Shown here: in pieces, positions 10,109 to 61,178 of the stretch | Numbering within the stretch: the first letter of the stretch is position 1 | Layout: each line of letters opens with the position of its first letter | Assembly (NCBI RefSeq): GCF_026210795.1 | Contig: NC_089433.1 | Span: 1,922,001 to 1,986,000, forward strand | Direction: 5' to 3' | DNA: 64,000 bases | Origin: Rhizophagus irregularis | Taxonomy: Eukaryota | The notes under the pieces: model-generated | Seen by the model: only the letters and a program-made list of their open reading frames with translations | What the model was told of the DNA's origin: nothing | The model's database searches: none | Translations under genes and position numbers: made by a program

Positions 10109-13100
10109 AAGTTACTCACTTGTCTGAATCTGACTGCCACCTAATAACGAGAAGTATTTGATCTGTCGTGAAGCATAAAGCAAATTTTTCTCGTTCTTTA
10201 CCCAATTCCATTTTATTTTTGTCTCAAGCCTTGGGCTTAATTAATTTGTTTGCTCATCAACGACAATGTCATATTACTAATTTATTTTTAATGGCTAATT
10301 CTTCTTCTACATTTATTCAATCTCTTTTTATTTATAGATTATGTTCGATTCAATATAATTTTTTGATTCCTATTTCTCCTCTTTTAATTAAGGATTGGTC
10401 TATATGGTCTTCTCTTTTTTCTTTTAAGAAAGATTATATTGCATGCACTATTGCTCTCTTAGCTTATACTCCCTTTCATTTGCTTCATACTGAACTTTTG
10501 AAGCTTCCGAACTTATCCTTGATAGATAGACGCGTTCCTTTATTTAAATGCATGACGCCTAAAGCCTTCAAAGCCTATTTTCCCATCCTGCGTAAACAAA
10601 AGCTGTTTTATTTATCTCAGCTTATTACTCCTCAAGGAACTCATTTAATTGCCTGGAAGGCTTACTATGACAATTTGGTTAGACGACGTGGCCCTGGCCG
10701 TACCCCTTATTAGTACAAAGATATCCAACAAGCTACCACTGTTCCTGACTCCAATAATCGTTTGCTAGAGAAATTTATTACTATGCCTATGCTTGATTCT
10801 TCCTTTTATGAATTAGAACCTTGTCTTTCCTCTCCGCCCACTACTAAAAATTGGATTGTCACATTGGATGATCTTGGTTCTCCCATCTTTGGCAAACAAC
10901 TTTTGGTCCAAGCAAGTCGTGGTACTTGTTCTATCGTCCATTGGGTTTCTCCTGATTGTGAATCTTTGCCTGGTAATCTCATTAGACTTTCTCCTTGCCC
11001 TGGCTGCGCTGCTCATATTCCTTTACCTCCTTCCAAAAAACGGAATGCTGATTTAACCCTTTGTACATTTACGGTCTCATTACAACATTCACTTATTCTG
11101 CTCACTACCAATAAGCGGATCAGATGTAATACTTCTGAAGTAACTTCCCCTTTTACTTGGGCTGATATAGAAGACGGTGTCCGTCTTTATTACAGTAGCT
11201 TGGATTTTGATTTTGATTCCACTTCTGTCGATACCGTTGTAGCTCCTGCTACTCCTGTCACTATTGAATCCTCGGCTGCTGCTGTTTTTGCAAACTCCCC
11301 GTTGGTTGTTTCTCCAGACTCGCGTTATATCTTCTTCACTGATGGATCTCTTATTAATTTAGGCACTCCTGATGTTTCTATGGGCTGGTCCTGGATGCAA
11401 ATCGTTCCTGATGCAGGCTTTCCTAATTCAATTGCCACTTATGCTCATGGTCTCATTTGAGATAATCCTTCTTCTTCTCGAGCTGAAGTTGCTGCTATTT
11501 ATGCAGTTTTAACTATTTTTCCCCGCGACTCAGAAGTCATTATTTATACTGACTCGCAAACCGCTATTAATGGTCTTCAAAGCTGCTCTTCCTCTGTTTA
11601 CTCAAATAGTCGTTTGTACTACAAAACTACAAATTTTGAGCTTTGGGCTATCATCGAGCAAACCATCCTCTCCAAAAATTTGACGGTCTCTCCTATTAAA
11701 GTTAAAGCTCACTCTGGCAATTATTTAAACGATTTTGCTGACTTCTTGGCCAATACTGCTCATACCGCGTCATCCAGTATTTTGATTTCTGGAATGAACC
11801 TTGCCTGATTTTGTTTTAATTTATGACAATGATGTTGTTTGTGAATTCAATCCACGACATCTCCTCAAACAATATTATTAAACGCAGTTAATGTGTGATT
11901 TATTAAGTTTAACGCGGTTTCATTTTATTTCTTTACTATCACCTAATATAGATTATGTGGTTGACTGGAAACTTACTTGGTTCGCTTTAAATTTCAAGCC
12001 TTCTCACGATGCATCCTTCACTTATGAACATGCTTCAAGGCACCAAACCTTTAAATTCAAACTTTTTTTGGATGACTTACCTACGTTAGAAAAGCTTAAA
12101 CGGACTCGACCAGATTTATACATGGACGAATTGACTTGCCGTTCTTGTATTGACCGCATGGAAGACTTGATGCACCTTTTTATGTGCAAAAATCGTCGAC
12201 TGCCTATGCAACGAATTTTACAGTCTTATCAAAAACATTTGATTTCCAAAATTTTGGAAGCCGGTATATTGGCTGACATTGATCCTACTCCATTTATTGC
12301 TAAACTCACTTCTCTTTCATGCTGGTCCTTTTCTTCTACAAATTGGTCCTCCTATGCCCTGGTCCATGGTTGCTTACCCAAAATCTTTCTTGACTTATTT
12401 GTCGATTTATCCATTCTGAAGATTTCTGCGATAAAGGTTATCGCTGCCATTCATAATAATTTTGTCCAAAAATTCAGAAGACGAATTTGGAATCCGCGTT
12501 CTTATGAAAAATATAGATGGGAAAACGCGATGAACATTACCTATAAGTCGAAAACTACTCTGAAGCCTTCTAATTTGCCATTGTCCAAATACATACCCTA
12601 CTCATCTTTACCACCTCTGACCCTACATGATTCACGTGATTCCGATACAGATTGGTTGAAAAACTCGATGAAATATGGCACATGTCAAATGATCAAAAAT
12701 AGGCAAAAAAAATGGCGCAAATCGCATAAACTATTCGCAAATTTGTATAAACTATTTACAAATAGTATAGGTTAATTCGTAAATAGCCAAAAACAGCCAA
12801 GAATAGCCAAGAATAGCCACTGCTTTTCGCGCCATTTTTTTTGCCGATTTTTAGCATTTCAACCTGTGTGGTTTGCCTTGGTTTAATCACTTTTCGGGTT
12901 TTATGGGTCGTCTAACGGTGCTACTTGATAACAGCTTTTGCAGGATGGAGTGTCGATTTTTATAGTGGGCGCGCTATTCGTTATTTTGTTAGCATAGTTG
13001 CTTCTACTTTGGTTGGAATATATCAAGGAGGAAGATCTAGGGAAATTTAGTGTAATGCGATTTTTCTTTTTTTAGATTAATTTTTTACTTAATTTTTTCT

Positions 13101-13222
13101 TAGGAGACTATATAGTTTTGTTTTTAGTTAGTTTTATTTTTATATTTTTCTTTTTATGTTTGTAAATTGTAAAAGTTTGAATAAATATTAATAAAGATAA
13201 AGGCTACTATGCCACGTTTGCC
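10109..13222 (+). mobile_element. LINE family A, copy A1 (3' part: post-RT region, RNase H, C-terminal Cys/His finger, 3' UTR); degenerate
   Basis: Homologous to 18504-21653 and to the reverse complement of 61179-64000. Motifs FFTDGSL, KVKAHSGN and CRSCIDRMEDLMHLFMC. In-frame stops at 10711 and 11458. Confidence 0.92.
12679..12868. mobile_element. MITE, 190 bp, CAC termini, 3-bp TSD TGG
   Basis: Imperfect TIRs CACATGTCAAATG.../...CATTTCAACCTGTG, with TGG on both sides. Removing it restores AAATATGGTTTGCCTTGG as seen in copy A4. Confidence 0.88.
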
Positions 13223-13376
13223 TGGTTTTTGACTAGTAGTAGTAGTAGTAACTCTCTCCTGAATTTTTCAAAAATGAAAATTTCTGACGAAATAATTTTT
13301 ATTATTTTTAAAAAAATAATACAAGCTACTAATAAAATTTTATATTTTATATATTCCCAACTCAAAGCCTTCTATT

Positions 13377-15498
13377 ATGTCTGGTAACTATGCCAAGAGA
13401 GGCCGTAGAAGTCATAACCCTAACAGTAGGAAAGCTTCCCGTCAAGAACGAAAAAATAATAATAACTCTGATAATTTAAGCTCTGATGGTGAAAACACTA
13501 TCCAGCAAAAACGTAATCATACGATTACTGAAAATTCTATGGATGAAGACTACGTTGCCGATAACCAGACGGCTGACGTTGGAGTAGATGGACCTTCCTT
13601 TTCTCCTCAACAAAATATCTCTGGTGAAAATACTTTGACCTCCTTCCTGAACAAATCTGCTGCGCCAACTGCGCCCAGTCACGTCGCGTCTTCTGGAAAT
13701 GTGGACGCATCCATGCATGCACCTTCTAACAAAGACTTGCAACAACCCCTAACGCGTCGCCCAATTTAGATACCAATAATGCTCCAGATGGCGATTATAC
13801 TCCCGATCTAGTGGTGACCCTTGCCATAACTAGAGATGATTTTCAAGCTGCAGCTACGCCGAATGCAGCCCCTAAATCTCTCAAAAAATTCCCTACCAAT
13901 AAAGCCCTTATTGAGGCTGTCAATAACCTTTTTTTAGAAACATACGAGTCATTCACTGGAAAGGCTCGTATGACTGGTTCTGGCGAGGCCAAACGCCTCG
14001 TTATCCACTTCCATACCGCTGAAGCATGCGATTTGTGCGTTGGTTCCACTCATCTTGAGTTCCCTGACTTGATCTTTCATGCCCATGACCCTCGCCAACT
14101 CTGATCCAATGAAGATCTCCGGGCTATCCAAGTTACTGATATCCCTTTCTTCATCAAAAAAGACAACCTGATGGCTTATTTTAGAAAATTTGGTAACATC
14201 ACCTCTTGTCGCCTCTTCTCCAGCCCTAATGCCAAAGTCCAGCAAGCCCGTATTGTATATGATCACGCCGATTCAATTGCTCATTTTACCGATCAATGGG
14301 CTGTATACTGTTTCTCCACCTGCCTCAGAATCACTCCATGCTTTTACACTGTAGATCAAAAGGCTGCGCGCCGGCAATACGTCACCACTCTCACTCAGCT
14401 TCCCCTAATATTAAAGACATCAACTTGGCTCCTCTTACTCGTAACCTTAGCGCTAAAGCTGTTAATATGTTACTTTCTCTAAATTCTTACAAACCCAAAA
14501 GATGGGCTTACGTCACCTTCAACTCCCAAGAAACCATGGATGCTGCTATGGAACAAACTATCAGCTTCCAAGGCCATGTACTTTTCTAGTCCTCCCCAGA
14601 TAATACTAATAAACTTTGTCACAGATGTGGCAAATTAGGCTGTGCTCCGAATTTCTGCCCACTTAAACAAACCAGAGGTAGAAGTCGCACTCGCGACCCT
14701 GTTGCAAAACTTAAATTACGTTTTAATGTCAATCAACCTCACCGCTCTAATTCAAAGACTGCCAATGCACGTTCTTGCTCCCGATCTCGCTCCAAATCTA
14801 AAGATCGATCTGCTCCCAATTCTGGACGTGATAATAACATTTCCCACGACCGCACTAATAATGATAAAAATCATAACAAATCTGCTCCCAATATCTCCCA
14901 ACATGCCCGATATAATAGCAAAGAACGATCAGTCTCCTTTTCTTCGTCCTCTCATTCTACAGCACGTCCCTTGCCCTGACAAACTCCTAACTCCGCATTA
15001 TTTCCTGATGATGCTGATAACATTTTAAACCTTTTGCGTGAATTACAATGTGAAGTAGCCAAATTTCACAAACGCATATCCGCCCTTAAACTCGCTGACC
15101 AACGGATGACTCGTATTGAATCACACCTTGGCCTTGATCCACTTCCTTCGCCTAATGAGCCTGAACTGGATTTCATGCAAGAAGATGCCCCTATAACTCA
15201 TGTTCTGCTTAATATTCAGTCATCTGCTCAATCTTCTTCACCGTCCAAAAGTATTTTAACGTGACCTTCGCCTACATTCACTATTGCTTCTAACACGTCG
15301 CTTCCTCCTTCTCACCTTTTCCCAAATGCTTCTTCTTTTACCCCTATCTCCTCCACGCAAGAAGAAATTAACGATCTCAAAAATAGTAGAGTCGTTATTG
15401 AAAGTAAATTGGACCAACTCACTGGTCATATCAAACAATTCATTAGCTCCATTGGTGGTGCTCCCCTGGAACAAGCTGATTCAGCTTCTTCTAATTAA
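13377..15498 (+). pseudogene. LINE A2 ORF1 (gag-like: RRM-like segments, CX2CX4CX4C knuckle, RS-rich region, coiled coil)
   Basis: Fragments 13377-13769, 13811-14104, 14171-14482, 14296-14589 and 15034-15264. Motifs AIQVTDIPF, YFRKFGNI, RWAYVTF and CHRCGKLGCAPNFC. Contains frameshifts and stops. Confidence 0.85.
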
Positions 15499-15548
15499 CT
15501 TTCTTCTTCAACTTTCAACTCCTTGACTGTTCTTATCATTGTGTTTTA

Positions 15549-18500
15549 ATGTCGGACAATAATTTTAATTATGACACCTTTGTACAAAACCCTCCCAACC
15601 TTGACGAAGCTACTAAAATTTTTTCACATGAATCGTTATTCTCTTCCTTTAGTAACACCTCTCCTATCCCCAATTCATTTAATATTTCCTCCTTTAATGT
15701 TAATGGCCTCAAAATGTATGGTCAAACTAAACTAGAAGAAATTTCAACTTTTTTTTCCTTAAAACATATTTCTTTTAGTGGTATCGTTGATACTCATCTT
15801 CATCCTAAACAAATGAAGTTTTTATCCAAGCGCATTCTAATTATACTGTATTCTCTTCTGATTTGGATACTTCTAAACAAATTCTTTCTTCTGGTGGTGT
15901 TTCTCTTTTTATTGAAAACTCCCATGCTTCACATATACAAGATTTTAAATCTCATTCTTCACGTTTACTTTCCGTTAATTTATATTTCAAAGGCAATGTT
16001 AAATTGCGCATATTTGTTATTTATATTCCTCCTCCTGCTGAAAGTGTTTTGTGCTCTGACACTATTGAATTGCTAATTCAGCAACTTTCCTCTACTAAAC
16101 AAGCTGGTTTTTACCATGCTGTTTGTGGCAATTTTAATATGCATTTAGATAAATATTATTCTATTTATTTTAATCAACCCCAAATTGCTTCAAAACATAT
16201 TCACCGCCTTTTTTTTCATCTCCTCTCTCATGGATATGAAGACTGTACTCCTGTTAATCTTTCTGATTCCTTAGGTACCTTTCATCGCAATGACCTAGTT
16301 ACTCGTGTTGATTATGTATGGTCCTGCCCTCTTCTCAAAGGATTTGCTCTTACTGCTTGCATCTTTGATGCTCAAGACATTTGCACATCTGATCATAACT
16401 CTGTTATCACATACTATGATATGTCTTTACTTTTTGCCTCTACTAAATTGGCTTGCGCTTGACAACTTAAGCGCCAAACCCGTCGCGTCTTCAAATTTGA
16501 TTCTGTAACTGATATTCAATGGACGGAATTCACTGACAAAGCTGATGCTTTATGTGACGTTTCACCTTTAATCTTTTTCTCCTGGCATATCAATCAAATG
16601 TGCGAATATCTTCAATCACGAATCCTCAAAGCTGCCAATGCTACTTTACTTTCTTCTATTGTTGGCAACAATTATACTCCTAAGGTCCCTAAAGATCTGG
16701 AAATTTTAACTCAACATTATTGTTTTTTAAATTGCCTGCTGCATTCGATACGTATATTGCGCAAACATCCTTCAACTTATTCTGCTGCCCATGAACATAA
16801 GTGGTCTACTCATTTAATTAGACTTCAAAACATTTTACAATTGTATAAGAAAGTATTTACTTTCACTCCTATTTTGCCCTCCTCCCTTTTATCATGTCGA
16901 CAAGATAATTTCAAATTACTCCTTGATGATTTATCTACTATTTCAAAATCCTTACGAGGATTTCAGTTGCTTCAAGAAAAAGAATTTCAAGATTCCTCCA
17001 TTCGTGCTCATTTGAATGATAGAAATAATAATTTTGAAACTGACCTTTCCTCCTTTATTGATTCAGCGCTTTCTCGCACCCGTCGCTATATCACTCTGGA
17101 TCGTATTTTTATTAACCATCCCATTCACCCTCAGTTGTTAACTGATCCTAAGGACATAGATGTTGCGGTTATTAACCATTTCCAAAACTTTGTACCTATC
17201 AAGTCCACTCCACCGGTGTCTATTGATACATTACCTGATAGATGGTCTGCTGCCTACCAACCTATAGATGATGTGTCTTCCTCCATCTATGATTCTTTAA
17301 TGAATCCCCCTACCCTTGACGAATGGTTATCCACCGTTTCTTCCACTCCTAATAGTAAAGCCTCTGGTCCTTCTATGATTACTTATGAAATGCTCAAACA
17401 TCTTGAAACTCGCACCTCGGCTCTGCTACTTATTTTAATTCAAACATGCCTCTCCAAAGCTGATATTCCTGATTTATGGCGACAAGCAATGGTTTTTCCC
17501 ATCCCTAAGCCTCACGAATGGAAATGTCAACTAAAAAACACTCGCCCTATTACTCTACTTGAAGTGATCAGAAAATCTCTTGTCAAACTTTTTTATAATC
17601 GCCTTTCTACTATTATGGCTTCACATGATGTCCTTAAAGGTGGTAACTTCGCTGGTCTTCCAAGTGGTTCTTGTCGCGACCCTATTATTACTCTAGAATC
17701 TATTATCCATGATGCTGATATCAATAAAAACCCACTCTGGATTCTCTCCCAAGATATTTCTAAAGCTTTTGACTCGGTCGATTTAACAATGTTACGTTTT
17801 GCTCTTGAACGTATACATCTTTCAGCTTCCGCTGTCAAGTTTATCCTTTCGCTCTTCACAAAACGCATTAATCGCATTTTCACTGCTCATGGATCTACAC
17901 CTGCTTATAGGGTTCGCATTGGTATTGACCAAGGCGAAGTTATTTCTCCTCTTTTATGGATTATTTATATTGATCCCTTACTCACTGTTTTGAAGAATGA
18001 AATGATAGACCCTTATGTTCTTTCTACACCGTCTTTAATTGATTCTCCAAATCCTTCTCTTGATTTGAAGATTAATAATTTAGTATTTATGGATGACTCT
18101 ACTCTTATTTCCTCGTCAAAAGCTGGCATGGAATTTATGTTATCCATTACTGAAGAATTTTATCAGATCAATAACACTTCTGCCAATCATAACAAATATG
18201 TGTTAATTACTAATTCATTGCCCTTGACTATGAATTCTACTTTATCTCCTATTACTTTTAATTTGGATTTATCCTCTTTAAATAGTATTCCTTCCATTAC
18301 TATTACCCCAATTTCCATGACAACTTCTTTTCATTTTCTAGGTGTTTGGTTTAACATTAAGAGCTCCCAGGATTTTGTCAAAAAGCAACTCAAACGCGAA
18401 TGCTGCTTTTTTGCTGCAACCATCCGCCCCGCAAAGCTCTCTTCTAAACAAGTTATGTATCTCCATAATACTGTCCTTATACCAAAACTTGAATATCGGA

Positions 18501-21395
18501 TGCAAGTTACTCACTTGTCTGAATCTGACTGCCACCTAATAACAAGAAGTATACGATCTGTTGTGAAGCATAAAGCAAATTTTTCTCGTTCTTTACCCAA
18601 TCCCATTTTGTTTTTGTCTCAAGCCTTGGGCTTGATTAATTTGTTTGCTCATCAACGCCAATATCATATTACTAATTTATTTTTAATGGCTAATTCTTCT
18701 TCTTTTTTTATTCAATCCCTTTTTATTTACCGATTGTGTTTAATTCAATATAATTTTTTGATTTCTATTTCTCCTCTTTTAATTAAGGATTGGTCTATAT
18801 GGTCTTCTTTACTTCTTTTTAAGAAAGATTATATCGCTTGCACTATTGCTCTCTTAACTTCTACTCCTTTTCGTTTGCTTCATACTCAATTTTCGAAACT
18901 TCTGAACTTATCCTTGTTAGATGAACACGTTCCTTTATTTTAATGCATGACACCTAAGGCCTTTAAAGCCTATTTTCCTATTTTGCGAAAGTGACAACTG
19001 TTGTACTTATCTCAGCTCGTTACTCCCCAAGGATCTCATTTAATTTCCTGGAAGGCTTACTATAACAATTTGGTTGGACGACGTGGCCCTGGCCGTATTC
19101 CTTTTTGGTACAAAGATATCCAACAAGTTACTACTGTTCCTGACTCCAATAACCGCCTGCTGGATCGTTTTATTGTTACGTATATGAATGACTCTTCATC
19201 TTATGATTTGGCTTCTTGCCTATCTTCTCCTCCCACTACAAAAAATTGGATTGTCACATTGGACGATTATGGTTCTCCCATTTTTGGCAAACAACTTTTG
19301 GTCCAAGCAAGTCGTGGTACTTGTTCTATTGTCCATTGGATTTCTCCTGATTGTGAATCTTCGCCTGGTGATCTTATCAGACTTGCTCCCTGCCTTGGCT
19401 GCGCTGCTCACATTCCTTTGCCTCCTTCCAAAAAACGGAATGCTGATTTAACCATTTGTACATCTACGGTCTCTCTCCAACATTCGTTTATTCTGCTCAC
19501 TACTAATGAGCGGATTAGACGTAATACTTCTGAAGTGACTTCCTCTTTTACTTGGACTGATATAGAAGATGGTGTCCGTCTTTATTATAGTAGATTGGAT
19601 TTTAATTTTGATTCTCCTCCTGCTGATACTGATGTAGCTCCTTTTACTATTGAATCCTCAGCTGCTGCTGTTTTTGCAAATTCCCCGTTGGTCATGTCTT
19701 CAGACTCACGTTACATTTTTTTCACTGATGGGTCTCTTATTAATTTAAACGCTCCTGATGTTTCTATGGGCTAGTCCTGGATGCAAATTGTTCCTGATGC
19801 AGGTTTTCCTAACTCTATTGCCACTTATGCTCACAGCCTTATTCGAGATAATCCTTCTTCTTCTCGAGCTGAAGCTGCCGCTATTTACGCAGTTTTAACC
19901 GTTTCTTCTCACGACTCAGAAGTTACTATATATACTGACTCGCAAAGTGCCATTGACGGCCTTCGAAGTTGTTCTTCCTATGTATACTCAAATAGCCGTC
20001 TTTACTACAAAATAACAAATTTTGAGCTTTGGGCCATTATTGAATGAACCATCCTTTCCAAGAATTTGACAGTCCTTCCTGTCAAAGTTAAAGCTCACTC
20101 TGGCAACTATTTAAACGATTTTGCCGATTCCTTGGCCAATACCGCTCACACTGCGTTATCCAGTATTTTGATTTCTGGCATGGACCTTGCTTCTGCCCAT
20201 GATCTTGTCTTAATTTATGACAATGATGTCGTTTGTGAATCTAATCCGTAACACCTTCTCAAACAATATTATCAAACGCAGTTAATGCGTGATTTGTTAA
20301 ATTTAACGCGATTTCACTTTACTTCTCTATTATCATCTAATATAGATTATATTGTTGACTGGGAACTTACTTGGTTCACTTTAAATTTCAAGCCTTCTCA
20401 CGACGCATCCTTCACTCATGAACATGCTTCAAGGTACCTAACCTTTAAGTTCAAACTTTTCTTGGATGATTTACCTACATTAGAAAAGCTTAAACGGACT
20501 TGACCTGACTTATACATGGACGAATTAACTTGCCGTTATTGTATCGACCGTATGGAAGACTTGATGCACCTTTTTATGTGCAAACATCGTCATCTGCCTA
20601 TGCCACAAATTTTACAATCTTATCAAAAACATTTGATTTCCAAAATTTTGGAAGCCGGTAAATTGGCTGATATTGATCCTACTCCATTTATTGCTAAACT
20701 CACTTCTCTTTCATGCTAGTCCTTTTCTTCTACAAATTGGTCCTCATACGCTCTTGTCCGTGATTGTTTACCCAAACTTTTTATCAACTTATTTGTCGAC
20801 CTATCCATTCCAAGAACTTCTGCGATAAAGGTTATCGCTGCTATTCATAATAATTTTGTTCAGAAATTCAGTAGACGAATTTGGAATCTGCGTTCTTATG
20901 AAAAAAGTAGATGGGAAAACGCGATGAATATTACTTATAAATTGAAAACTACTCTGAAGCCATCTAATTTGCCATTGTCAACGTACATACCTTACTCATC
21001 TTTACTACCTCCGACCCTACACGATTCACGTGACTCCAGAACTGATTGGTTGAAGAACTCAATGAAATATGGATTGCCTTGGTTTAATCACTTTTCGGGT
21101 TTTATGGGTCGTCTAACGGTGCTACTAGGACCCCGAAAAATACATATGGAGGTCATAAATGATCGGCAAGATTTTGGCCTAAAATAAGCAACTTTTCAGG
21201 ACCGGAATTATAATAATGCTAGCCAGTATCAAAACGGACAATAAAATTTAGGCCGGCACTATCCAAAAAAGGCAAGATTTTCATGAAAATTTAGGTTCTT
21301 TTTAAGCAAACTCAAATGTGACCTTTTTATGTATTTTTCGGGGTCCTGTGCTACTTAATAACAGCTTTTGCAGGATGGAGTGTCGATTTTTATAG
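15549..21395 (+). pseudogene. LINE A2 ORF2 (APE endonuclease - reverse transcriptase - RNase H - C-terminal zinc finger)
   Basis: APE: SFNVNGL, CGNFN, RVDYVW, SDH. RT: KASGPS, NTRPITLL, QDISKAFDSV, GIDQGEVISPLLW, FMDDSTL, FLGVW. RNase H: FTDGS, RAEAAAI, YTDSQ, KVKAHSGNYLNDFADSLA. Several stops and frameshifts. Confidence 0.92.
21127..21347. mobile_element. AGGACCCCG-family MITE (221 bp), 8-bp TSD GTGCTACT
   Basis: Runs AGGACCCCGAAAAATACATA...TATGTATTTTTCGGGGTCCT, with GTGCTACT at 21119-21126 and 21348-21355. Confidence 0.9.
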
Positions 21396-21679
21396 TGGGC
21401 GCGCTATTCATTATTTCGTTAGCATAGTTGCTTTTACTTTGGTTGGAATATATCAAGGGGGAAGATCTGGGGAAATTTAGTGTAATGCGATTTTTCTTTT
21501 TTTTAGATTAATTTTTTTTACTTTATTTTTTCTTAGGAGACTATATAGCTTTGTTTTTAGTTAGTTTTATTTTTTATTTTTCCTTTTATTTTTTGTAAAT
21601 TGTAAATTTTGAATAAATTTAATAAAGATAAAGGCTACTATGCCACGTTTGCCTGGTTTTTGACTAGTGCTGATCCTAC

Positions 21680-21975: not shown

Positions 21976-22271
21976 CAGTCAACTCATTCTATAGTCACTC
22001 CCGTTATAGTCACATTCTACTATATAGTCACACCAGTTAAATGTTCAAAACACTTTATTATTAAAATCTATCCTATATAGTCACAATTTATCTATAGTCA
22101 CTATCACACCTATCCTCAAAAATCTTATATTAAAAAGAACCATTTATAATTACAGTTATATAAAGAATATATTAAATAACTTGGCATCTAATAATCGTAC
22201 AAAGATGTACCATAGCTTGTTAGAATCGTCTCACTGAAACGAATTGAATGGTGGTAGTTTTATCCTTTTAC
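21976..22271 (+). mobile_element. Left end of a putative Tc1/mariner-pogo-like non-autonomous element; hosts the LINE-B/SINE target site
   Basis: Starts TA|CAGTCAACTC with repeated ATAGTCAC motifs, then the dyad GAATCGTCTCACTGAAACGAATTGAATGG and the target TTTTATCCTTTTAC (22258-22271). No right end found. Confidence 0.5.
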
Positions 22272-24569
22272 TTTACTATGTTTACGGCCAGACCACCCAT
22301 TGCCTCTTTTTGAGACTAATCTCGGGTCTGTGTCCTATCATCTTCAATGGGCAACCATTATATCGAGTACTTAATTCCTCAGGTAACAGCACCACTATAG
22401 AAGACATCTCCCATCGGGCCACTTTAGGCTGATCTGAAGCTAGGTACACGCCGCCTACTCATCCTATACCCATTGCATGATACTGATACTCAATTTATTT
22501 TACGACCTTTAGAGAGCATCTACTTTCATGGAGGACTTTCGACAGGTAACATCAACCATCTAGTACCCTTTCATACTACCATTTTAGGTACTAAGTCTCA
22601 CTCAAAGGCCACTACAGCCCCGATTACCTAGCACCGATAGTACAGTTGTTTACCCCAAGTGGTATACTTTGTAGTAACCTAACCATGACAGGAAGTAGCA
22701 GGCATTTGTCCAGGATCACCCCTTATAGTGGGTATCAACCACCAGGGATCACTAACCAAAATCTAAAGAGTAGGAAATCAAACCCCATAACCATGCTACC
22801 TGTTCTGTGCACTGGTCAAAATCAATACTATCAGGTACATATCGGGTACCTGATATGTGTATAATATATGTGATATATGTGTATGATATTTAACAATACT
22901 ACACATATCAGGTACCCGATATGTGTAGTAGAAATGTAGAAAATCGGTGACATATACTGTAAACATCACATATACATCTTACACATATCGGGTAGTCAAA
23001 TATCGGTGACATATCTTGTAAACATCATGTATATATCTTATACATATCGGGTAGTCAAATATCGGTGACATATCTTGTAAATATCACGTATATATCTTAT
23101 ACATATCGGGTAGTCAAATATCAGTGATATATATTATAGATATCATATACTTAACACACATATATCGGGTAGTTAGCTATAAATTTCATATTAAAACTAA
23201 TAGATATATATCTTTTTTTTATTTTAATTCAGATAAAATGAAATTCAACTTTATTAAAATTTAAACAATAATACAAGTCTTACTCTATCTACTACATACG
23301 TAAAATCAAATAAAGTTGAACATTAAAAATAAATAATTATACTATGTAATATGTAAAGTTCTACTGAAAGTAGCAATGATAATAAAATTATCTGTTTAAC
23401 ATTTAAAAAAAATATTAATGAAAATATTAGTAAGTATATTAATTAATAAGAGAAATAAAAATAGAAATGTTAATAAAAACGTTAGTGGTAAAAATATAGA
23501 AAATGTTAGTAAAAATGTTAGTAGAAAGAAAGAAAAGTTAGTAAAATAGAAAATATTAATACGAGAATGTTAATAAAAACATGTTAGTAGTATTTAATAT
23601 TAATAGAAAATGTTAATAAGTGGTAAAAAACATTAGTGAGAGAAAAGAAAAAAAGTATTAGAACGTCAATAGAAAATGTATATATATAAAAGAAAAAAAC
23701 AAGCATAATGAAAATATACCTTTATGTTTATTTCTAATATAAAAATAAATAAAAAAATATAATAATATTATTATTTCATAATAACTAAGTAAAGAGTTTG
23801 TTTTAAATAAAAAGTAAAAAGTTTAAGAGAAAGGTTTTTACGAAAGGAAAAAAAAAAATAAACAAAGTGCGAAATATAAATACCGAAATCATGTGATCAA
23901 TCGCTTGATTACAACAACAAATTCTGATTGGGCCATAATTTTAACCCCGGGTTATTATAATTTATAATAGAATTACACTGCAAGTTAAACTCTTTATTGC
24001 TTTAAATTACCAATTAGTCACATATCGGGTACCTATCGGTAACCTATCATGCATATACCAGTCAACAAGTTAAATCACTGATTTTTCGTAATATCACAAT
24101 AATAAATATTAATTTAGAATCTCCTTCATCCACTCAACTTACAGTTTGTATTATTATCCAAGAATCCATGCACTGGTTGAATGATGGCATATCAGGTCAT
24201 AAGATATCATGGCATATTGGTTAAATATCAGAAACCTGATATAGCTTGATATGTAATATTAAAAATCATATACATATCAGTAACCCAATATGACAATGAT
24301 TTGTTACCATAAGAGATATCGGTATTCTAATAGGTTGTTGAAATCTATATGAAAATAATCTGATTTATAAGTTACTCTTAAGTAGCTTTAATTGATTGAT
24401 CGGCAAAGAGAAACTTTAGTTTTGGAACGGTTTAATCCATCTGAAGTATATTGTTTCATTTAATAACGGAAATACTTATTTATCATAAATATAAATATTT
24501 TTTTTTTTCCTTTTTTAGGGTAAATATTTTTATTTTTATTATTCATTTATTTGATTTTTTAACTTACAG

Positions 24570-27500
24570 TTCAGTTTTCTTGCAGGTTTCGTTCTCATTG
24601 GAAATAGATTTTGGTAAGTTTATTTTACATTTTTTCCCCTATATTTAATCCCTTTAATTTTATATTTCTTAACAAACTTTATTAATTGTTCATTATTTTC
24701 TTTCTATTTTAGGTGGATTTTCGGTCTTCTTTAGGACTTCGGAACTCGGAAGTTAACTTCCTTAACTTCAGTTGATATTAGACAAAACTTTTTGTAGATC
24801 GGTATCCTGGAATGAAACAGTAAGTTTCAGAGTATTTCATTTTACTTCAAAACTTTTTAAAATTTATCTTATCTTTATTAGTATTTTTTTTGTAGGTATC
24901 GATAGAGTGAGTTTCTTGGATCGTTTTTTTAAATTTGCTTTGAAGAAACTAATTATTTCTTCTTTTGTCAAGTTTGTAGGGTTCGTCTTCAATTATCAGG
25001 TCAGTTCTTTGGTAAGTTTTGAATTGAAACTAAAAGGAATTTTTTTTTTTTAACGAGCATTGCTAACGTTTCGTTAATATATTTTTTTTAGGTTTTGGGT
25101 TCAACTGGACTCCTTCAGTGAGTTTCTATTCGAACTTTTAGAAAAATCAAATTTCTTTTTAGCTAACATTTCATTGTTATTTTTTTTTAGGTTTCAGGTT
25201 CAACTGGATGACTGGATTCCCCTCCGTTCTTCAGTGTATTTCGTTCCAAACTAAAAAAAATTTTTTTTTAACGAAATTTCGCTAATGGTGGTAAATCCGT
25301 AATGATCATCACATTAATCTGATTTGTAATTGCCGATATCGATAATCTAATTTTAATTCTTCTTCAGTTTTATTTTTTTTTTCATTTAACTGAAAAAATT
25401 TTAGTAAATAATTGGTGAAGTTTTTTTATTTCTATTTTATTTTTATTCCTTTTATTATATTTTCTTTTTTATCTTTAGGGATATCTCTCAGACTTGGAGC
25501 TCAGCCCTTTATTTCAATTTGAGAACATTATTAACGTTCCCTTTCTTTTTTTTCTTTAGGGACAGTGAGACGCGGACTTCGGCCTCTTGGATACCGGGCT
25601 TTGGAATGGTAATTAGAATGGGAGAGGATTCTTTTTTTTTGATTTGAGAACATTACTAACGATCCCTTACTTTTTTCTTTAGGGATAGCGAGTCGTGGAA
25701 TTTGGTCTTGAATGCTGGACTTCGGAATGGTAACTAGAATAGGAGAGCAGGAAGGGGATTTTTTTGATTTGGGAACGTTACTAATATTCCGTTTCTTTTT
25801 TTCTTTTGTAGATTCCGGAACCCGTTGGACACCATTTCGAAAGGACCCCGAATAATACTAATATAACTCACAAATGATCGGCATGCATTTACTATTAACT
25901 CTACGCAACTTTTTTTTTATAGTAACGCTACGCAAATCCAAATCTTAGTTCAAAAAAATTTTTGTTACTAATATAATTCATTTCACATTTTTTCTATTAA
26001 AATATTAATAAAATCATGCAAACCTCACCATTTTATATTAAAATAGTGTAGTTCGCACTTTTTTCTATTAAAATATTAATAAAATGGTGCGAAAATCACC
26101 ATTTATTTGTTAAAATGGTGCGTTTCGCACTTTTTCTATTAAAATATTAATAATATCATGCGAAACTCACCATTTATTTGTTAAAATAGTGCGTTTCGCA
26201 CTTTTTTATAATAAAATATTAATAAAATGGTGTGAAACTCTCCATTTATTTGTCAAAATGGTGCGTTTCGCACTTTTTTATATTAAAATATTAATAAAAT
26301 GGTGCGAAACTCTCCATTTATTTGTCAAAATGGTGCGTTTCGCACTTTTTTATATTAAAATATTAATAAAATGGTGCGAAACTCCATTTTTTTGTTAAAA
26401 TGGTGCGTTTCGCACTTTTTTATATTAAAATATTAATAAAATGTGCGAAACTCCCGATTTTTTTGTTAAAATGGTGTGTTTCGCACTTTTCTATTAAATT
26501 ATTAATAAAATGGTGCATTTCGCACTTTTTCTATTAAAATATTAATAAAATGGTGCGAAACTCTCCATTTATTTGTCAAAATGGTGCGTTTCGCACTTTT
26601 TTATATTAAAATATTAATAAAATGGTGCGAAACTCCATTTTTTTTGTTAAAATGGTGCGTTTCGCACTTTTTTCTATGAAAATATTAATAAAATGGTGCG
26701 AAATTCACCATTTTTTGTTAAAGTAGTGCATTTCGCACTTTTTTTTTATTAAAAAATATTAAAATAATGCGAAATGCATTACTTTTTGTTACTATATACA
26801 ATTAATTACCAAAATCCGTAATATTGCAAATTTCATAAATATATTACGGACCCATCCTTAATGGTTTTGCGCAACTTAATTTTTATCAATATTATACAAT
26901 TGATCAACATATATTTATAAACTCTACGCAAACGTGATATGTGAGTTATCCCAAAATTGACCGATCTACGCAAACTCAATTTATGGGTTTAAAAAGTAAT
27001 TTCATATAAACTCTACGCAAACCCGTTTGTGAGTTATATCAGTATTATTCGGGGTCCTATTTCGAACCAGTAAGTAAAAAAAAAAAATACTTTAAAAAGA
27101 AGGCGTATAGATATATACTAACCTTCTATTTTCTTTTTTTTTTGTAGGTTCCGGACGCCATTTCGAACCGGTAAGTTAAAAATCGTTCTAATAGAAGGCG
27201 TATAGATATATACTAACCTTTTATTTTCTTTTTTTTGTAGATTCTGGACCCTATTCGTTCTTATTTTTTGTAGGTTCAGAATGCCGAAGATACACATTTC
27301 GAAGGTAACTTCAGTTTATTTTATTTATTTTTTTGTTATATTCAAGCGAAACGTTACTAATGCTTCGATTTTTTTTTTAGGGTTTCGGCTCTCTGGAACT
27401 CTCCTGGGCGGAATTTCGAAGGTATTTCTTTGAAATTAATTTATTTCTTTGTTTTATTTAAATGAAACGTTAACTTAAACGTTTCAATTTTCTCTTTTTA

Positions 27501-28870
27501 TAGGTCCATGGCTTCCCGAGCGGCATTTCGAAGGTAAAACTTCAAAAACTTTTATTTTTATTTTTATTCAATGAACATTAATTAACGTTCGTTCTATTTT
27601 TTGTAGGTCCAGAACACCGAAGGTATAGTGACGGACTCCACTTCGAAGGCAAAACCATCGAAGTTTTTTAATTTTATTTAATGAAACGTTGGCTAACGTT
27701 TCATTTGTGTTTTTTTTATAGGTTTTGTAGGTCCACGGCTTTCCGGACGCGAATTTTGAAGGTAAAACTTTGAAATTAAAATTTTTTTTTATTTTAATTT
27801 GATGAACGTTAACTAATGTTCGTTTTGATTTTTTGTAGGTCAAGACATTGCCGGGTTCTATTTTGAAGGTGAAAGTTCGAAATGATTTTTTTTATTTTTT
27901 AACGAACATTATACTAATGTTCATTTTTCTTTTATTTTTGTAGGTCAGGACGCTGCCAGACTCCATTTTAAAGGTATTTTCTTTGAAAGTTTTTTTTTAT
28001 TAATTTATTTAACGAATGTTAGCTAACGTTCGTTCTTATTTTTTGTAGGTCCAGAATACCGAAGGTGCGATTCTGGATCCATTTTGAAGGTAACTTCAAT
28101 TTTTTTTTTTTTTTCAGCTAAACGTTCCTAATGTTTCAGTTTTTCTTTTTTAGGTATTTGGCTCTCCGAAATTCTCCTGGATGGAATTTTGAAGTTACTT
28201 CTTTGAAATCATTTTACTTTTTATTTTATTTTGTTATATTTTAGCAAAACGTTACTAACTTTTCGTGTCTTTTTTTTTAGGATCAGGAAGTTGAAGCACT
28301 CCCATTTCGAAGGTGAAACTTTTATTTATTTTTTATGTTTTATTAATGAAATGTTTTTATTAATGAAAGGTACTAACATTTTATTTTATTCTTTTTGTGA
28401 GAACCCAGCCGTCACTACTGCCATTTCGAAGGTAAAACTTCGAAGTCTGTTGTTTTTTTTTATATTTATTTAAACGAAATGTTGACTAACATCTCGACGT
28501 TTTGTTTCCTCTTTTTGTAGGTTTTTGACTCTCTGGACGCAGAATTTCGAAGGTAATACTTCGAAATTCTTTTTTTTTACTTTCTTCTAACGAACGTTAT
28601 ACTAACATTTATTTATTTTATTTTTTAGGTTCCAGGTTCCCTTTCAAACATTTCGAAGATGACAATTCGAAATGTCATTTGTTTTATTTTGTTTTTAACG
28701 AACGTTTGCTAAAGTTCGTTTTTCTTTTCTATATGGAAACCCGGGACCTAAAAAGTAAAAGTTCGAAGGTAAAGCTTCAAGATTGAGTTTTTCTTTTTTT
28801 CTTTATTTCTCTATAACGAAACTTTATTTCTTTTGTAGGTCCTGGACACCGTTTCAAAAGAATTGAATAG
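24570..28870 (+). other. Array of micro-exon/intron modules (putative spliced transcript 1 of the CACTG element)
   Basis: Repeated pattern: CTAAC branch, polyT, TAG | ~10-50 nt GC-richer exon | GT. About 14 consecutive exons at 27273-28768 end in TT(C/T)GAAG or close variants. Confidence 0.7.
25842..27058. mobile_element. AGGACCCCG-family element (1217 bp) with internal 69-bp repeats, 8-bp TSD ATTTCGAA
   Basis: TIR AGGACCCCGAATAATACT.ATATAACTCACAAA. ATTTCGAA at 25834-25841 and 27059-27066. Confidence 0.92.
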
Positions 28871-30590
28871 TTGTTTGCTGGAATCGAACCAACTGGAACA
28901 ATGTTCCAAACCATTAACAACATAATGTAGATAGATAGATAGAATAGGATAAATGAATGTAATTTATGTATAATAATGAAATAAAAAATATACGTTTAAA
29001 TAAATAAATAAATAAATAAATAATGTATATAAAATAAATAAATAATAAGAATAATAAGAAATCAGGTTTCGATGTAGCAAATATGCAACTAATATTATAG
29101 ACAGTTCGGTAAGGATTAAGATTGCTAAAATTCTTCCGATATTCATATTACACTTACCCGATGCTGCTTGACCCAAAAGTCACATGACTTATACCTGATC
29201 TGCGCCGAGAACCGGTCACAAATCAGGTGGACTGATCAGCTCCCATTCAGGTTAAAATCGAAAACAAATAATAGGGGCTATCGGGTATATGAAATTTACC
29301 CGGTAGCCCTTCATTTAACTAGTGAAAGGTAATGAAGTATGTGGTCATTGTGGTGTGAATGGTGTTAGGAATTCCACTAATGCCATTTCTTTATCTTTTT
29401 TAGGTTTTTAAGCAGTTTTTAAACAGCTCTTAGACAAACGGCATGTAATGGAGTGTATATATATATATAGTTGAGTGTGGTATTGCTAATGGTGTTATAA
29501 AAAATAATAACTAGTAACGCCACTATTTTTTATTTTTAGGATTCTTGATAGTTCCTGGATAATCCTTCGCGGTAGGTCTTTTGGTTGGGTATTAATGGCG
29601 TTATTAAACTATATAATAATGCCTTTTTTATTTTTTTTTAGGTTTTAAGTCAGACGATTATTTGCAATAAGTTTCTTTGGGTGATTATATGGAGCGATAT
29701 TAACACCTTTTACTTCTTTCTTTTTTGATTTTTAGACGATTCGTTGATAACTGTTTATGGTAAGTCTTTCGGGTGGGTGTTAATACAGTAGTACTATTAA
29801 ACTATAATAACACCTTTTTTTTTGTTTTTAGGTTTTAAAATAGTTTCTGGATGTCTCCTTGCAGTATGTTTCTTTGAGTAGTTATGTGGTGATATTAATG
29901 GCATATTAAATCCATTTGTTTTTTTTTTCGTTAGGTTTCTGAATGGTTTTTGTGGATAAAAAACACAGATTTCTGTACTGGTAATAAGTTTCTTTTGGTT
30001 GGTATGTGAATGTTAATGACGTTAGGATGCAGTACTAACATAATTTCTTCTATTTTTTAGGTTCTTGGACAATGCTTTGAACGATTTTTGGATAAAACAT
30101 TATGGTAGGTTCTTTTGTTAATGCAATAATGGTATTATTAAACAAAGCTAACACTTTTTTTTTATTTTTTTATGTTTCTTGGATTAAAACGCGTAATGTA
30201 GATCAGACATGATCGTAATGTCAAGATCAACTAAGACGTGACATCTGATATTAGAACTTAGAAGTTGCTTGTTGGAATCGAACCAACTGGAACAATGTTC
30301 CAAACTATTAAAACATAATGTAAATAGATAGAATAGGATAAATTAATGAACAATTTAAATATAATAATGAAATAAATATATTATATGTTAAATAAATAAA
30401 TAAATAAATAAATAATAGTACATATAAATGAATAAATAATAAAAAGAAATCAGGTTTCGACATAGCAAATATACACCTGATATCATAAATAGTTCAGTAA
30501 GGATTAAGAGAAATATCGGATTGCTGAAATTCTCCCGATATTCATATAACACTTACCGTTATGTTCTGACCTGAAAGTCATATGACAAAT
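28870..30590 (+). repeat. Diverged direct repeat (~320 bp; ~28870-29195 and ~30263-30590) closing each micro-exon array; a second exon array lies between the copies (~29400-30180)
   Basis: Both copies contain TGGAATCGAACCAACTGGAACAATGTTCCAAAC, AATAAA-rich tracts and GAAATCAGGTTTCGA...GTAAGGATTAAGA. Confidence 0.8.
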
Positions 30591-31285
30591 CATTTGACCT
30601 GTGATTAGTACCTGATATATATTAGAAATATATCGGTGACATATTGGGCGATATATATCTGATTATATAGGTGCCCGAAATATACCAGTGTATATCGGTG
30701 ACATATTGGGTACCCGATGTTGTACCCGATATATGTAAATGCCCGATATATATCTGATTAGTCACCGATATATAGGTGCCTGATATATACCCGATAGCAT
30801 AGATTTTGACCAGTGGTGTACGAACACTTTGGTTGGTCTAAGACCTAACAGAAGGTCAAACTACCACTAAGACATTGCACTCTCAGCCCTCAGCTTTACC
30901 ATTTAGGACGACCATCTAGCTATTACTGACTCCAAGTGGTATCGTAGAGTGACCACCTGGACAGGAAGTCTCCCCCAAGGTATAGTAGTGACCTCAAGAA
31001 CAGGACTGCGCACATACCAATGGCCTCATAGGGAACGTTAGAAAGACACCATGACCCTTAGTTGAAATGTGCGGTCTAACCGTACACACTAATTCACCAT
31101 GATGCAGTCCAACTACACTAATCCCTGTACTTTCATGCTATTGGTTGTAGCGTCCGCAGTAAAATTCTTTTTATTTCCGTGGTCATGGGAATCGAACCTG
31201 CGACCTCACCATACTCAGGCTTAATGAGGGACTCAGTTACTATCTACCGAAATAGGGTGACCAACCTTTAGTTTTATCCTTTTAC

Positions 31286-33721
31286 TTTGCTATATTTACG
31301 GCCAGACCACCTATTGCCTCTTTTTGAGGCTAATCTCGGGTCTGTGTCCTATTATCTTCAATGGGCAACCATTATACCGAGTACTTAATTCCTCAGGTAA
31401 CAGCACCACTATAGAAGACATCCCACATCGGGCCATTTTAGGCTGATCTGAAGCTAGGTACACACCGCCTACTCATCCTATACCCATTGCATGATACTGA
31501 TACTCAATTTATTTTACGATCTTTAGAGAGCATCTACTTTCATGGAGGACTTTTGACAGGTAACATCAACCATCTAGTACTCTTCCATACCACTATTTTA
31601 GGTACTAAGTCTCACTCAAAGGCCACTACAGCTCGCGATTACCTAGTACTGATAGTACAGTTGTTTACCCCAAGTGGTATACTTTGTAGTGACCACTCAG
31701 ACAGGAAGTAGCAGGCATCTGTCCAGGATCACCCCTTATGGTGGGTATCAACCACCAGGGATCACCAACCAGGACCCAAAGAGTAGGGAATCGAACCCCA
31801 TAACCATGCTACCTGTTCTGTGCACGAACACCTTGGTTGGTCTATGACCTAACAGAAGGTCAAACTACCACTAAGACATTGCACCCTCAGCTTTACCATC
31901 TAGGACGACCATCTAGCTATTACTGACCCCAAGTGGTATCGTGGAGTGACCACAGGACCCCGAATAATACTAATATAACTCACAAATGATCGGCATGCAT
32001 TTACTATTAACTCTACACAACTTTTTTTTCATAGTAACGCTACGCAAATCCAAATCTTAGTTCAAAAAAATTTTTGTTACTAATATAATTCATTTCACAT
32101 TTTTTCTATTAAAATATTAATAAAATCATGCAAACCTCACCATTTTATATTAAAATAGTGTGTTTCACACTTTTTTCTATTAAAATATTAATAAAATGGT
32201 GCGAAAATCACCATTTATTTGTTAAAATGGTGCGTTTTGCACTTTTTCTATTAAAATATTAATAATATCATGCGAAACTCACCATTTATTTGTTAAAATA
32301 GTGCGTTTCGCACTTTTTTATATTAAAATATTAATAAAATTGTGCGAAACTCTCCATTTATTTGTCAAAATGGTGCGTTTCGCACTTTTTTATATTAAAA
32401 TATTAATAAAATGGTGCGAAACTCTCCATTTATTTGTCAAAATGGTGCGTTTCGCACTTTTTTATATTAAAATATTAATAAAATGGTGCGAAACTCTCCA
32501 TTTATTTGTTAAAATGGTGCGTTTCGCACTTTTTTATATTAAAATATTAATAAAATGGTGCGAAACTCTCCATTTATTTGTCAAAATGGTGCGTTTCGCA
32601 CTTTTTTATATTAAAATATTAATAAAATGGTGCGAAACTCTCCATTTTTTTGTTAAAATGGTGCGTTTCGCACTTTTTTATATTAAAATATTAATAAAAT
32701 GTGCGAAACTCCCAATTTTTTTGTTAAAATGGTGCGTTTCGCACTTTTTTATATTAAAATATTAATAAAATTTGCGAAACTCCCAATTTTTTTGTTAAAA
32801 TGGTGCGTTTCGCACTTTTTTATATTAAAATATTAATAAAATGGTGCGAAACTCTCCATTTATTTGTCAAAATGGTGCGTTTCGCACTTTTTTATATTAA
32901 AATATTAATAAAATGGTGCGAAACTCTCCATTTTTTTGTTAAAATGGTGCGTTTCGCACTTTTTCTATTAAAATATTAATAAAATGGTACGTTTCGCACT
33001 TTTTTATATTAAAATGTTAATAAAATGGTGCGAAATTCACCATTTTTTGTTAAAGTAGTGCATTTCGCACTTTTTTTTTATTAAAAAATATTAAAATAAT
33101 GCGAAATGCATTACTTTTTGTTACTATATACAATTAATTACCAAAATCCGTAATATTGCAAATTTCATAAATATATTACGGACCCATCCTTAATGGTTTT
33201 GTGCAACTTAATTTTATCAATATTATACAGTACAATTGATCAACATATAATGCAATATATTTAAAAACTCTACGCAAACGTGATATGTGAGTTATCCCAA
33301 AATTGACCTATCTACGCAAACTCAATTTATGGGTTTAAAAAGTAATTTCATATAAACTCTACGCAAACCCGTTTGTGAGTTATATTAGTATTATTCGGGG
33401 TCCTGTGACCACCTGGACAGGAAGTCCCCCCTAAGGTATAGTAGTGACCTCAAGGACAGGACTGCGCACATGCCAATGGCCTCATAGGGAATGTTAGAAG
33501 GACACCATGACCCTTAGTTGAAATGTGCGGCCTAACCGTACACACTAATTCACCATGATGCAGTCCAACTACACTAATCCCTGTACCTTCACGCTATTGG
33601 TTGTAGCGTCCACAGTAAAATTCTTTTTATTTCCGTGGTCATGGGAATCGAACCTGCGACCTCACCATACTCAGGCTTAATGAGGGTCTCAGTGACTAAC
33701 CACTAAGATAGGATGACCAAC
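31286..33721 (-). mobile_element. tRNA-derived SINE copy 2 (interrupted by an AGGACCCCG element)
   Basis: Same ~970-bp sequence. Two B boxes on the minus strand (31787-31797 and ~33644-33654). Target copies at 31272-31285 and 33725-33738. Confidence 0.87.
31954..33404. mobile_element. AGGACCCCG-family element (1451 bp) with expanded 69-bp repeats, 8-bp TSD GTGACCAC
   Basis: Near-identical to 25842-27058 apart from repeat number. GTGACCAC at 31946-31953 and 33405-33412. Confidence 0.92.
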
Positions 33722-33738
33722 TTGTTTTATCCTTTTAC

Positions 33739-34945: not shown

Positions 34946-34960
34946 ATTTTATCCTTTTAC

Positions 34961-36163: not shown

Positions 36164-36178
36164 ATTTTATCCTTTTAC

Positions 36179-37152: not shown

Positions 37153-37420
37153 TTATTTTATCCTTTTACTGTGCAAACAGTCTTTTGACTTTATCTTTTA
37201 TTCATATTTTAACATCGAAAATTGACGAACAATATTACAAAAATAAGAAAATAAACTAATAAAAAATAAAAAGAGTAGCTTCACGACTCATATAAGTAAA
37301 GAAATCTAAACTAAAATAAAATTAAAGCAAAGAAAAACTAAACTATTACAGAATCGCATACCCCAACTTTACCCGAAGGCCAGTGTGAGTCAACTATCCA
37401 ACGTCCAAAAATCCAGTCCG

Positions 37421-46420: not shown

Positions 46421-46518
46421 ATAAATCTGCATTTTATTTATGATATGGAAAACGTGACCATAAATTCTTTTAAGGATATAATTTTATTAAAATAAATCAA
46501 AACTCCTATATCAAGTGA

Positions 46519-53551: not shown

Positions 53552-53593
53552 GTCGGTATGTAGATAGTTTATTAGAGAATTATGGGTTGCATA

Positions 53594-61146: not shown

Positions 61147-61178
61147 ACTAATCAAAAACCACTGCTAGTTAAAAACCA

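Follow-up and report, generated by a model that had tools for sequence, protein, structure and literature searches.

A LINE family of Rhizophagus irregularis that probably targets the tips of CACTA-type DNA transposons

The 64-kb stretch of the Rhizophagus irregularis genome analysed here (contig NC_089433.1, forward-strand positions 1,922,001 to 1,986,000; hereafter the window) has a G+C content of 33.5% and contains transposons nested in one another, among them four copies (A1 to A4) of a long interspersed nuclear element (LINE) that is called family A. Family A is very probably sequence-specific for a 15-base motif, TGGTTTTTGACTAGT, and, as far as can be judged from the sequence, its primary target is probably the outermost part of the terminal inverted repeat of CACTA-type (CACTG/CACTA) transposons. 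This reading is based on a fixed motif shared by both types of junction, on conservation that breaks off sharply past the terminal G, on identity with a transposon terminus that was verified, on variants of the junctions, and on head-to-tail arrays.

The initial annotation of the window had placed the 15-mer between A1 and A2, after A2 and, twice in degenerate form, between A4 and A3, and every coordinate was confirmed. All three intact 3' ends of family A in the window are followed by the motif and both 5' ends are preceded by it, A2 being flanked on both sides with A1 as its 5' neighbour in tandem. The two 15-mers between A4 and A3 lie on the minus strand at 61178-61164 (two mismatches) and 61161-61147 (one mismatch). 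When up to two mismatches are allowed, the window contains exactly four matches to the 15-mer, where 0.31 were expected and none of 100 shuffles attained four, a count that is inflated by the homology of the A copies. Together with the junctions in public runs described below, these ends give good support to the earlier proposal that family A is sequence-specific at the motif.

That proposal had gone further and, from an 11 of 12 match between the 3' flank of A2 and the terminus of an 8-kb element in the window, had named a CACTA terminus as the target. The match was verified, and it holds for both termini of the element (22810 and 30815): CACTAGTCAAAA (21669-21658, minus strand) is identical to each of them at 11 of 12 bases, for which the chance at one given place is 2.4e-6. 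The pattern CACTRGTMAAAA has seven matches in the window (0.04 expected, 0 of 100 shuffles), six of which are the termini of three CACTG elements, the seventh being the A2 3' junction. The 8-kb element and the miniature elements resemble CMC-EnSpm (CACTA) elements in having CACT(A/G) terminal inverted repeats and subterminal repeats as well as 3-bp duplications that were verified against empty sites (exact at 31814, 34506 and 35726 and variant at 36705 for the 8-kb element; 22604, 31618 and 36510 for the miniatures, with the duplication CAC). A transposase of its own was not found in the 8-kb element, the longest stop-free frame of which has 108 amino acids, spliced genes still being possible; from its sequence the element appears to be non-autonomous or decayed.

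Of 24 public runs listed, five were aligned to the window; X1, X2, X3 and X5 consist of contigs and X23 of RNA reads (1295, 1464, 1071 and 592 contigs on 12950-13600; 88, 103 and 49 contigs and 105 RNA reads on 61108-61205). Counts of loose ends from both alignments cover the loose ends listed, beyond which there are 235 and 12 further rows, respectively, and are lower bounds, and the runs share loci and are not independent samples (an identical 209-nt contig occurs in X1 and X5, and the A4/A3 junction of the window is letter-identical in one X1 contig). On 61108-61205, loose ends occur at 61171, with a consensus ending CACTGGTC on the plus strand and random letters beyond, in at least 7 of 16 partly aligned contigs in X1 (agreement 0.60), at least 8 of 14 in X3 (0.63) and at least 54 of 82 partly aligned reads in X23 (0.57). 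Simulation of 8 fixed and 22 random letters gave agreements of 0.60-0.62 for 7-8 sequences and 0.53-0.55 for 54 sequences; the observed values of 0.57-0.63 fit this model, and thus the conserved stretch ends with the terminal G and the flanks beyond it are diverse.

Conservation after the 3' end of family A runs to ...GACCAGTG, which reads CACTGGTCAAAA from outside and is identical to the terminus of the 8-kb element at 12 of 12 positions; a variant starting with TAG (X3 and X5) agrees with the right end of that element at 15 of 16. The usual 3' junction consists of TTTGCC, then TRGTTTTTGACCAGTG, then locus-specific DNA, and on 12950-13600 at least eight X1 contigs depart after the 15-mer, with G as the first letter of the consensus and an agreement of 0.48, which is the random level. 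The same flank is found at 3 of 3 ends in the window and in 7 of 16, 8 of 14 and 7 of 12 partly aligned contigs, which are not counted insertions, and these fractions lie above the 20% of insertions that is used to call a LINE sequence-specific in the available text of one study (PMC4494074). The 105 RNA reads of X23 fall on the 3' end, the 5' end having hardly any coverage, and their first mates are on both strands; the reads pass through the motif into diverse flanks, their strand and origin being ambiguous, and no poly(A) loose end is among the X23 rows listed.

The strengthened likeness bears on the idea of a fixed target or tail without any relation to CACTA elements (a Helitron-like CTAG end, say, or a tail of TAG microsatellite), which would resemble their termini by chance. 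The motif in the window does end in CTAG-T, with TAG triplets after it at one junction, but the commoner form outside the window is GACCAGTG and not CTRR, the 12 of 12 identity ends exactly at the terminal base of the element, and the improbability of even the 11 of 12 match was given above. The hairpin at the 3' end of family A is not significant (z -0.77), those at the 3' ends of the comparison families B and C are likewise not more stable than shuffles, and scans for Rfam families and tRNAs gave no match, so that a small-RNA gene as the target was also rejected. A chance likeness is therefore very improbable.

On the 5' side, at least six forms of tandem junction were found, mostly without the last G, as would be expected from repeated target-primed insertion. 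The forms are (AGT)4; a doubled 15-mer (X1, X3 and X5); (AGT)2 plus A6 (3' end, 15-mer, (AGT)2 and A6 in X3); (AGT)2 (3' end, 15-mer and (AGT)2 in X5); a full terminus with G plus AGT (X3, in a contig too short to reveal the preceding DNA); and other lengths of 24-38 nt, with spacers of 24, 27, 28, 29, 32 and 38 bases derived from gap counts. The depth of 5'-end contigs persists through the TAGT that precedes AACTCTCTCC, with which the element starts, and falls at 61150-61152 in all three contig runs, and an X5 contig with a depth of 1340 (single-locus contigs have about 250-320) carries an intact 15-mer directly upstream of the 5' end of family A. In record 5 of X1, the 5' end is preceded by the 15-mer and by 39 letters that do not align to the A 3' end, no joint being listed, which is suggestive of a first copy inside a host element. 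Other 5' ends, bearing CTCTCC, follow the same 15-mer in two contigs of X3, one contig each of X1 and X5, and 19 reads of X23 (mixed), which suggests that other families share the site with family A.

These junctions can be accommodated by the following mechanism, in which we infer the nick positions, the specificity of the endonuclease and the landing of the first copy in a pre-existing CACTG element. The apurinic/apyrimidinic (AP)-type endonuclease of family A would recognise and cut the tip of a CACTA-type inverted repeat, with a bottom-strand nick about 16 bases into the transposon and a top-strand nick one base short of its end (GACYAGT/G). A tail-less LINE would then be inserted by target-primed reverse transcription, with duplication of 15 bases, so that the outer copy of the 15-mer retains the complete terminus, CACTRGTCAAAA, and the inner copy lacks the last base. 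Two usable targets would be left after each insertion, leading to further copies and to head-to-tail arrays, and related LINEs or short interspersed nuclear elements (SINEs) probably also insert at the regenerated targets. Tandem arrays that arise via regenerated targets are a feature of the R1 clade of LINEs. Slippage of the AGT-ended primer during second-strand synthesis could produce the (AGT)n or the second 15-mer at 5' junctions. LINE-free host elements would be expected to end in TRGTTTTTGACYAGTG; the nick positions would be uncertain if the RNA of family A reads through the target.

Several observations weigh against a CACTA terminus as the target. The window has six CACTG ends that are free of LINEs, and none of them carries the exact target, CACTRGTCAAAAACCA, past base 12; they diverge from base 13 (or at base 8), and no A copy is found at any of them. 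The putative host of family A is visible as one 16-bp end, its partner end and the CTG duplication lying outside the window. The host terminus deduced from the runs would be CACT(A/G) with conservation ending at its last base, and the X5 consensus (7 of 12 contigs), TACTGGTC, deviates at that base, with A instead of G after GACCAGT. Among the loose ends listed for X1, contigs leaving the 3' end of family A have the motif in eight cases and lack it in eight, and in two X1 contigs the 5' end is flanked by unrelated DNA in place of the 15-mer (one such motif-less piece differs from A3 at 5 of 39 letters and may represent a sister subfamily); thus either specificity is incomplete or the counts include sister families that have other targets. 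All four readable motif-bearing junctions on the 5' side are of the tandem type or too short to tell, and no contig among the aligned runs displays CACTG interior sequence upstream of the 15-mer. The proposal of a CACTA target was borne out in its likeness to the terminus, by the 12 of 12 consensus and by conservation that in two contig runs and in the RNA run ends exactly with the terminal G, and not in the exact LINE-free end or the host interior upstream of a first copy. The initial annotation had named a motif confined to the 3' ends of A copies, with random sequence beyond, as contrary to its reading; this pattern was not cleanly found, the motif standing also directly 5' of A copies, although nearly all readable junctions are tandem.

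Several of these observations would also be expected if family A had once picked up the 16 bases by read-through at a CACTG terminus and now carried them as its own 3' end, with founders inserting anywhere, later copies targeting the motif that ends earlier ones, and CACTA hosts being dispensable. The tandem nature of each readable motif-bearing 5' junction, one X1 place with an unrelated flank at the A 5' end, the 54 X23 reads that cross the motif into diverse flanks and the lack of the exact target at the six CACTG ends of the window all agree with a captured end. On the other hand, at least eight X1 and at least four X2 contigs depart sharply at 13223, family A's own end, among the loose ends listed, so that the motif is separable from the element; the motifs of the sister families B and C serve as true targets; the last G is present in outer copies and absent from nearly all inner ones, as in a duplication that ends one base inside the terminus; and record 5 of X1 also speaks against capture. 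A captured end is thus unlikely.

It is less likely still that a few old chance insertions of family A in a CACTG end were multiplied as composites by the DNA transposase, so that the junction was copied and not targeted. The outer terminus is intact after insertion, and diverse flanks past the G are what DNA transposition would give, but head-to-tail arrays with at least six junction structures require repeated retrotransposition at the same base, other elements have their 5' ends at the same site, and families B and C provide parallels. Hitch-hiking on the host may add to targeting; it cannot replace it. Targeting of the CACTA terminus by family A itself is the reading that is followed here.

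The coding capacity agrees with that of an AP-endonuclease (APE)-type non-LTR (long terminal repeat) retrotransposon: open reading frame 1 (ORF1) encodes an RRM and a CCHC-like knuckle and lies upstream of ORF2, in which the AP-endonuclease precedes the reverse transcriptase (RT, with an FMDD motif), RNase H and a C-terminal CCHC, and LTRs are absent. Pfam matches were obtained for RVT_1, RNase_H (E 1.2e-10) and RRM_1, the score for Exo_endo_phos_2 being below the cut-off in the window frame and at cut-off level in P0020. Matches in the PDB are to L1 ORF2p and R2, and a profile built from 13 relatives gives matches to L1 ORF2p and to endonuclease chains of L1 (endonuclease E about 1e-14); chains of the TRAS1 and R1Bm endonucleases are not among the best 60 of 74 profile matches, in a comparison of similarity and not a tree. 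By sequence, family A is classified as an L1-like LINE carrying RNase H. It was filed neither under Tx1, from which it departs by its RNase H and to which its likeness is one of mode of action, nor under R1, its endonuclease matching L1 chains and not R1Bm or TRAS1 among those best 60 of 74.

With the RT frame of A2 as query, 144 of 4767 candidate proteins were recovered at E <= 1e-30. The closest are 85-91% identical and labelled Rhizophagus irregularis, followed by R. clarus, and relatives with intact ORF2 are numerous in Rhizophagus assemblies. In the gene models P0058 and P0059, ORF2 continues into the next ORF1, and thus A-like tandems exist in R. clarus. The N-terminal extra parts of the gene models P0048, P0049 and P0059 contain no transposase domain. 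Databases list many of these LINE proteins as genes of the host.

The two comparison families offer analogies to the targeting by family A, not proof of it. LINE B of the window has its own 15-bp target on both sides, and its duplication is equal in length to that of family A (15 bases). The upstream copy of the B target lies 39 bases inside a AGGACCCC-type hAT-like end (8-bp duplication), and the last unit of the array formed by B and SINE-like units is followed by TACCACCATTC..., which is likely to be the continuation of B's host element. The same 15 bases are shared by B and the unrelated tRNA-headed unit, so that they represent a target and not the end of an element. The gene models P0061 and P0113 fuse ORF2 to the next ORF1 in B-like elements, which indicates that B is also tandem elsewhere. 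On the minus strand of 22255-56461, LINE B and about five tRNA-headed units of ~1 kb form one array, the units being bounded by GTAAAAGGATAAAA(C).

Family C is represented by two soil metagenome stretches (L001 and L002) that are 97% identical to each other and 35-37% identical to family A in ORF2. Its motif, GTGTTACATTT(G/A)AC, precedes the non-tandem 5' end of L001 at a distance of 15 bases (within L001:131-160) and directly follows the 3' end of L002 (L002:5551-5564), and the DNA upstream of the L001 5' end is not a LINE 3' end. The two copies of the motif agree at 13 of 14 positions (0 of 20000 shuffles), this being one pair chosen after inspection. The C motif in L001 is preceded by CA, which gives CAGTG and resembles the tip of a DNA transposon, and the DNA beyond the motif in L002 has a 15-base word in common with the hAT-like miniature inside A2. 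A CACTA at base 1 of L001 was rejected as a terminus; it lies at the contig edge and resembles an intron branch point and acceptor. In another soil metagenome stretch, an element rich in intron-like repeats (L012:500-2419) interrupts a related LINE, and such repeats also occur inside the 8-kb CACTG element.

Families A and B (window 13250, 61146 and 56406) and the metagenome relative (L001:161) all open with AACTCTCTCC, in spite of ORF2 sequences that are just about one-third identical, and this start is likely to be an internal initiator motif.

In wider collections, the 3'-end pattern of family A had no match in viral contigs, metagenome contigs or prokaryote genomes, and protein searches found no loci in viral contigs or prokaryote genomes. 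The protein search of metagenomes gave 18 of 146 candidate stretches, family A being absent, and L001 and L002 alone among the metagenome stretches have usable ends of an element of the close clade. The CACTG terminus pattern had 45 matches in viral contigs, none of which was similar to those in the window, and they were taken as chance; the target patterns of B and C had 0 and 1 match, respectively, in viral contigs.

The features of the window are collected in Table 1. The 5' half of A1 is truncated by a Plavaka-type DNA transposon that ends at 10108 and the other end of which precedes the window, and LINE B is interrupted by a second element of this type (44134-55534). Both Plavaka-transposase elements (44134-55534 inside LINE B and 1-10108 inside A1) have the termini CATCAGGAA, subterminal arrays of ~50 bp and an apparent 2-bp duplication, GA. 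ORF2 of A2 is disrupted by stops, one frameshift and a 221-bp hAT-like insertion (21127-21347), and the end of ORF2 of A1 contains an insertion of ~190 bp (12679-12868) with 10-bp internal repeats. Elements with AGGACCCC ends lie at 21127-21347, 25842-27058, 31954-33404 and 48922-50417, with the 8-bp duplications GTGCTACT, ATTTCGAA, GTGACCAC and TGCTCGTC. The window lacks the 3' half of A3 and the distal end of the hAT-like host (21670-22254 and 56462), and there is probably a deletion or inversion breakpoint shortly downstream of A2, so that the downstream flank of A2 may be intact for a short distance only.

Table 1. Coordinates of family A, its junctions and the comparison elements in the 64-kb window
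Feature	Position	Strand	Remarks
LINE A1, 3' half	10109..13222	+	Self-alignment; tblastn with intact ORF2 P0002; terminus
Putative 15-bp target motif TGGTTTTTGACTAGT, A1/A2 junction, without terminal G	13223..13237	+	
(AGT)4 at A2 5' junction	13238..13249	+	Number of AGT varies among other junctions
LINE A2, full length, decayed	13250..21653	+	Start AACTCTCTCC, end ...CACGTTTGCC, poly(A) tail absent
A2 ORF1, RRM and CCHC-like knuckle, frameshifted	13377..15480	+	
A2 ORF2: AP-endonuclease, reverse transcriptase (FMDD motif), RNase H, C-terminal CCHC	15549..21395	+	
15-bp motif plus terminal G, A2 3' junction, then CTG	21654..21669	+	Reads CACTAGTCAAAAACCA from outside; would be the outer end of a CACTA-type host element
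Tandem ~1-kb SINE-like units, tRNA-like head	22255..37170	-	Each bounded by the 15-bp target of B
8-kb non-coding CACTG element	22810..30815	.	Termini CACTGGTCAAAA, 3-bp duplication GTG, ends LINE-free; terminus reference
278-bp CACTG miniature element	34080..34357	.	Termini CACTGGTAAAAA, 3-bp duplication CAC
CACTG miniature element, second copy	35303..35581	.	
LINE B	37171..56406	-	5' motif AACTCTCTCC; own 15-bp target GTAAAAGGATAAAAC on both sides
LINE A3, 5' half	56462..61146	-	Start AACTCTCTCC at 61146; 3' half absent past hAT-like end 56461
A4/A3 junction, two degenerate 15-mers with AG between	61147..61178	-	
LINE A4, 3' part	61179..64000	-	Continues beyond window edge

If the reading is correct, it would add a fungal, RNase H-bearing LINE lineage with several families, each on a different site of 14-16 bases at or near transposon ends. 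The extreme tip of a terminal inverted repeat would likewise be a target of a new kind. The reading would also explain part of the nested repeat blocks in mycorrhizal genomes and predicts CACTA elements that are disabled or cargo-loaded by LINE insertion. Families that are about one-third identical and have different targets would form a natural series for the long-sequence specificity of AP-endonucleases, which bears on tools for targeted insertion. It might even be, and this is put forward tentatively, that an RNase H-bearing L1-like lineage of the Glomeromycotina type diversified as its endonuclease was redirected to end regions of several superfamilies of DNA transposons (the last 16 CACTA bases for A, a site 39 bases inside a hAT-like end for B and its SINE, a CAGTG-starting end for C), as a fourth origin of strict targeting beside RLE (restriction-like endonuclease), Tx1 and R1. 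A cut one base inside the tip would leave the outer end of the host intact, and family A could ride along whenever that host transposes.

Most target-specific LINEs fall into three groups, early RLE, Tx1 and R1, according to the available text of PMC4640811, and endonucleases determine the choice of target in such elements (PMC4494074, PMC1950540, as far as their available text goes). The R1 clade (R1Bm, TRAS/SART) has an AP-endonuclease and a fixed target, RNase H occurring in the wider I group (PMC4640811); the target of family A differs in being a transposon end and not rDNA or a telomere. Repeats of R. irregularis have been labelled 'LINE R1' in a report that lists LINE and CMC elements, targeting being unmentioned in its available text (PMC8647823). 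Proto1 and plant L1 are RNase H-bearing clades and share with family A the layout APE-RT-RNase H, target specificity being unmentioned for them, and Tx1 does not appear in the same list of RNase H-bearing clades (PMC4640811, available text).

The closest parallels in behaviour are found in the Tx1 clade, which the accessible portions of three papers describe as animal-borne (PMC4494074, PMC1950540, PMC6719617). In crocodilians, Tx1-Mar and SINEU target Mariner-N4_AMi and Tx1-9_AMi targets Harbinger about 300 bp from its 5' end; families of one LINE lineage thus prefer different DNA transposons and SINE partners share the target, much as in the array of B and SINE-like units, whereas the hosts are animals and, in the available text, the targets are not described as bases of a terminal inverted repeat and CACTA is not named (PMC4494074). 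Tx1L of Xenopus laevis is an AP-endonuclease LINE with a fixed target in Tx1D, a non-autonomous piggyBac-type element (PMC4494074, PMC1950540, PMC6719617), and so, in what these sources report, resembles family A, with its L1-type endonuclease, in having a fixed target within a DNA transposon. The literature searched, to which Repbase, subscription journals and supplements did not belong and which was available in part, holds no description of target-specific LINEs of mycorrhizal fungi or of a LINE aimed at CACTA termini. In contrast to Tx1L, family A is fungal, has RNase H and an FMDD motif, appears to target the terminal 16 bases of the inverted repeat of CACTA-type elements and forms long head-to-tail arrays. 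The parasitism of LINEs on DNA-transposon ends is a habit known from animals, of which family A is likely to be a new, fungal case.

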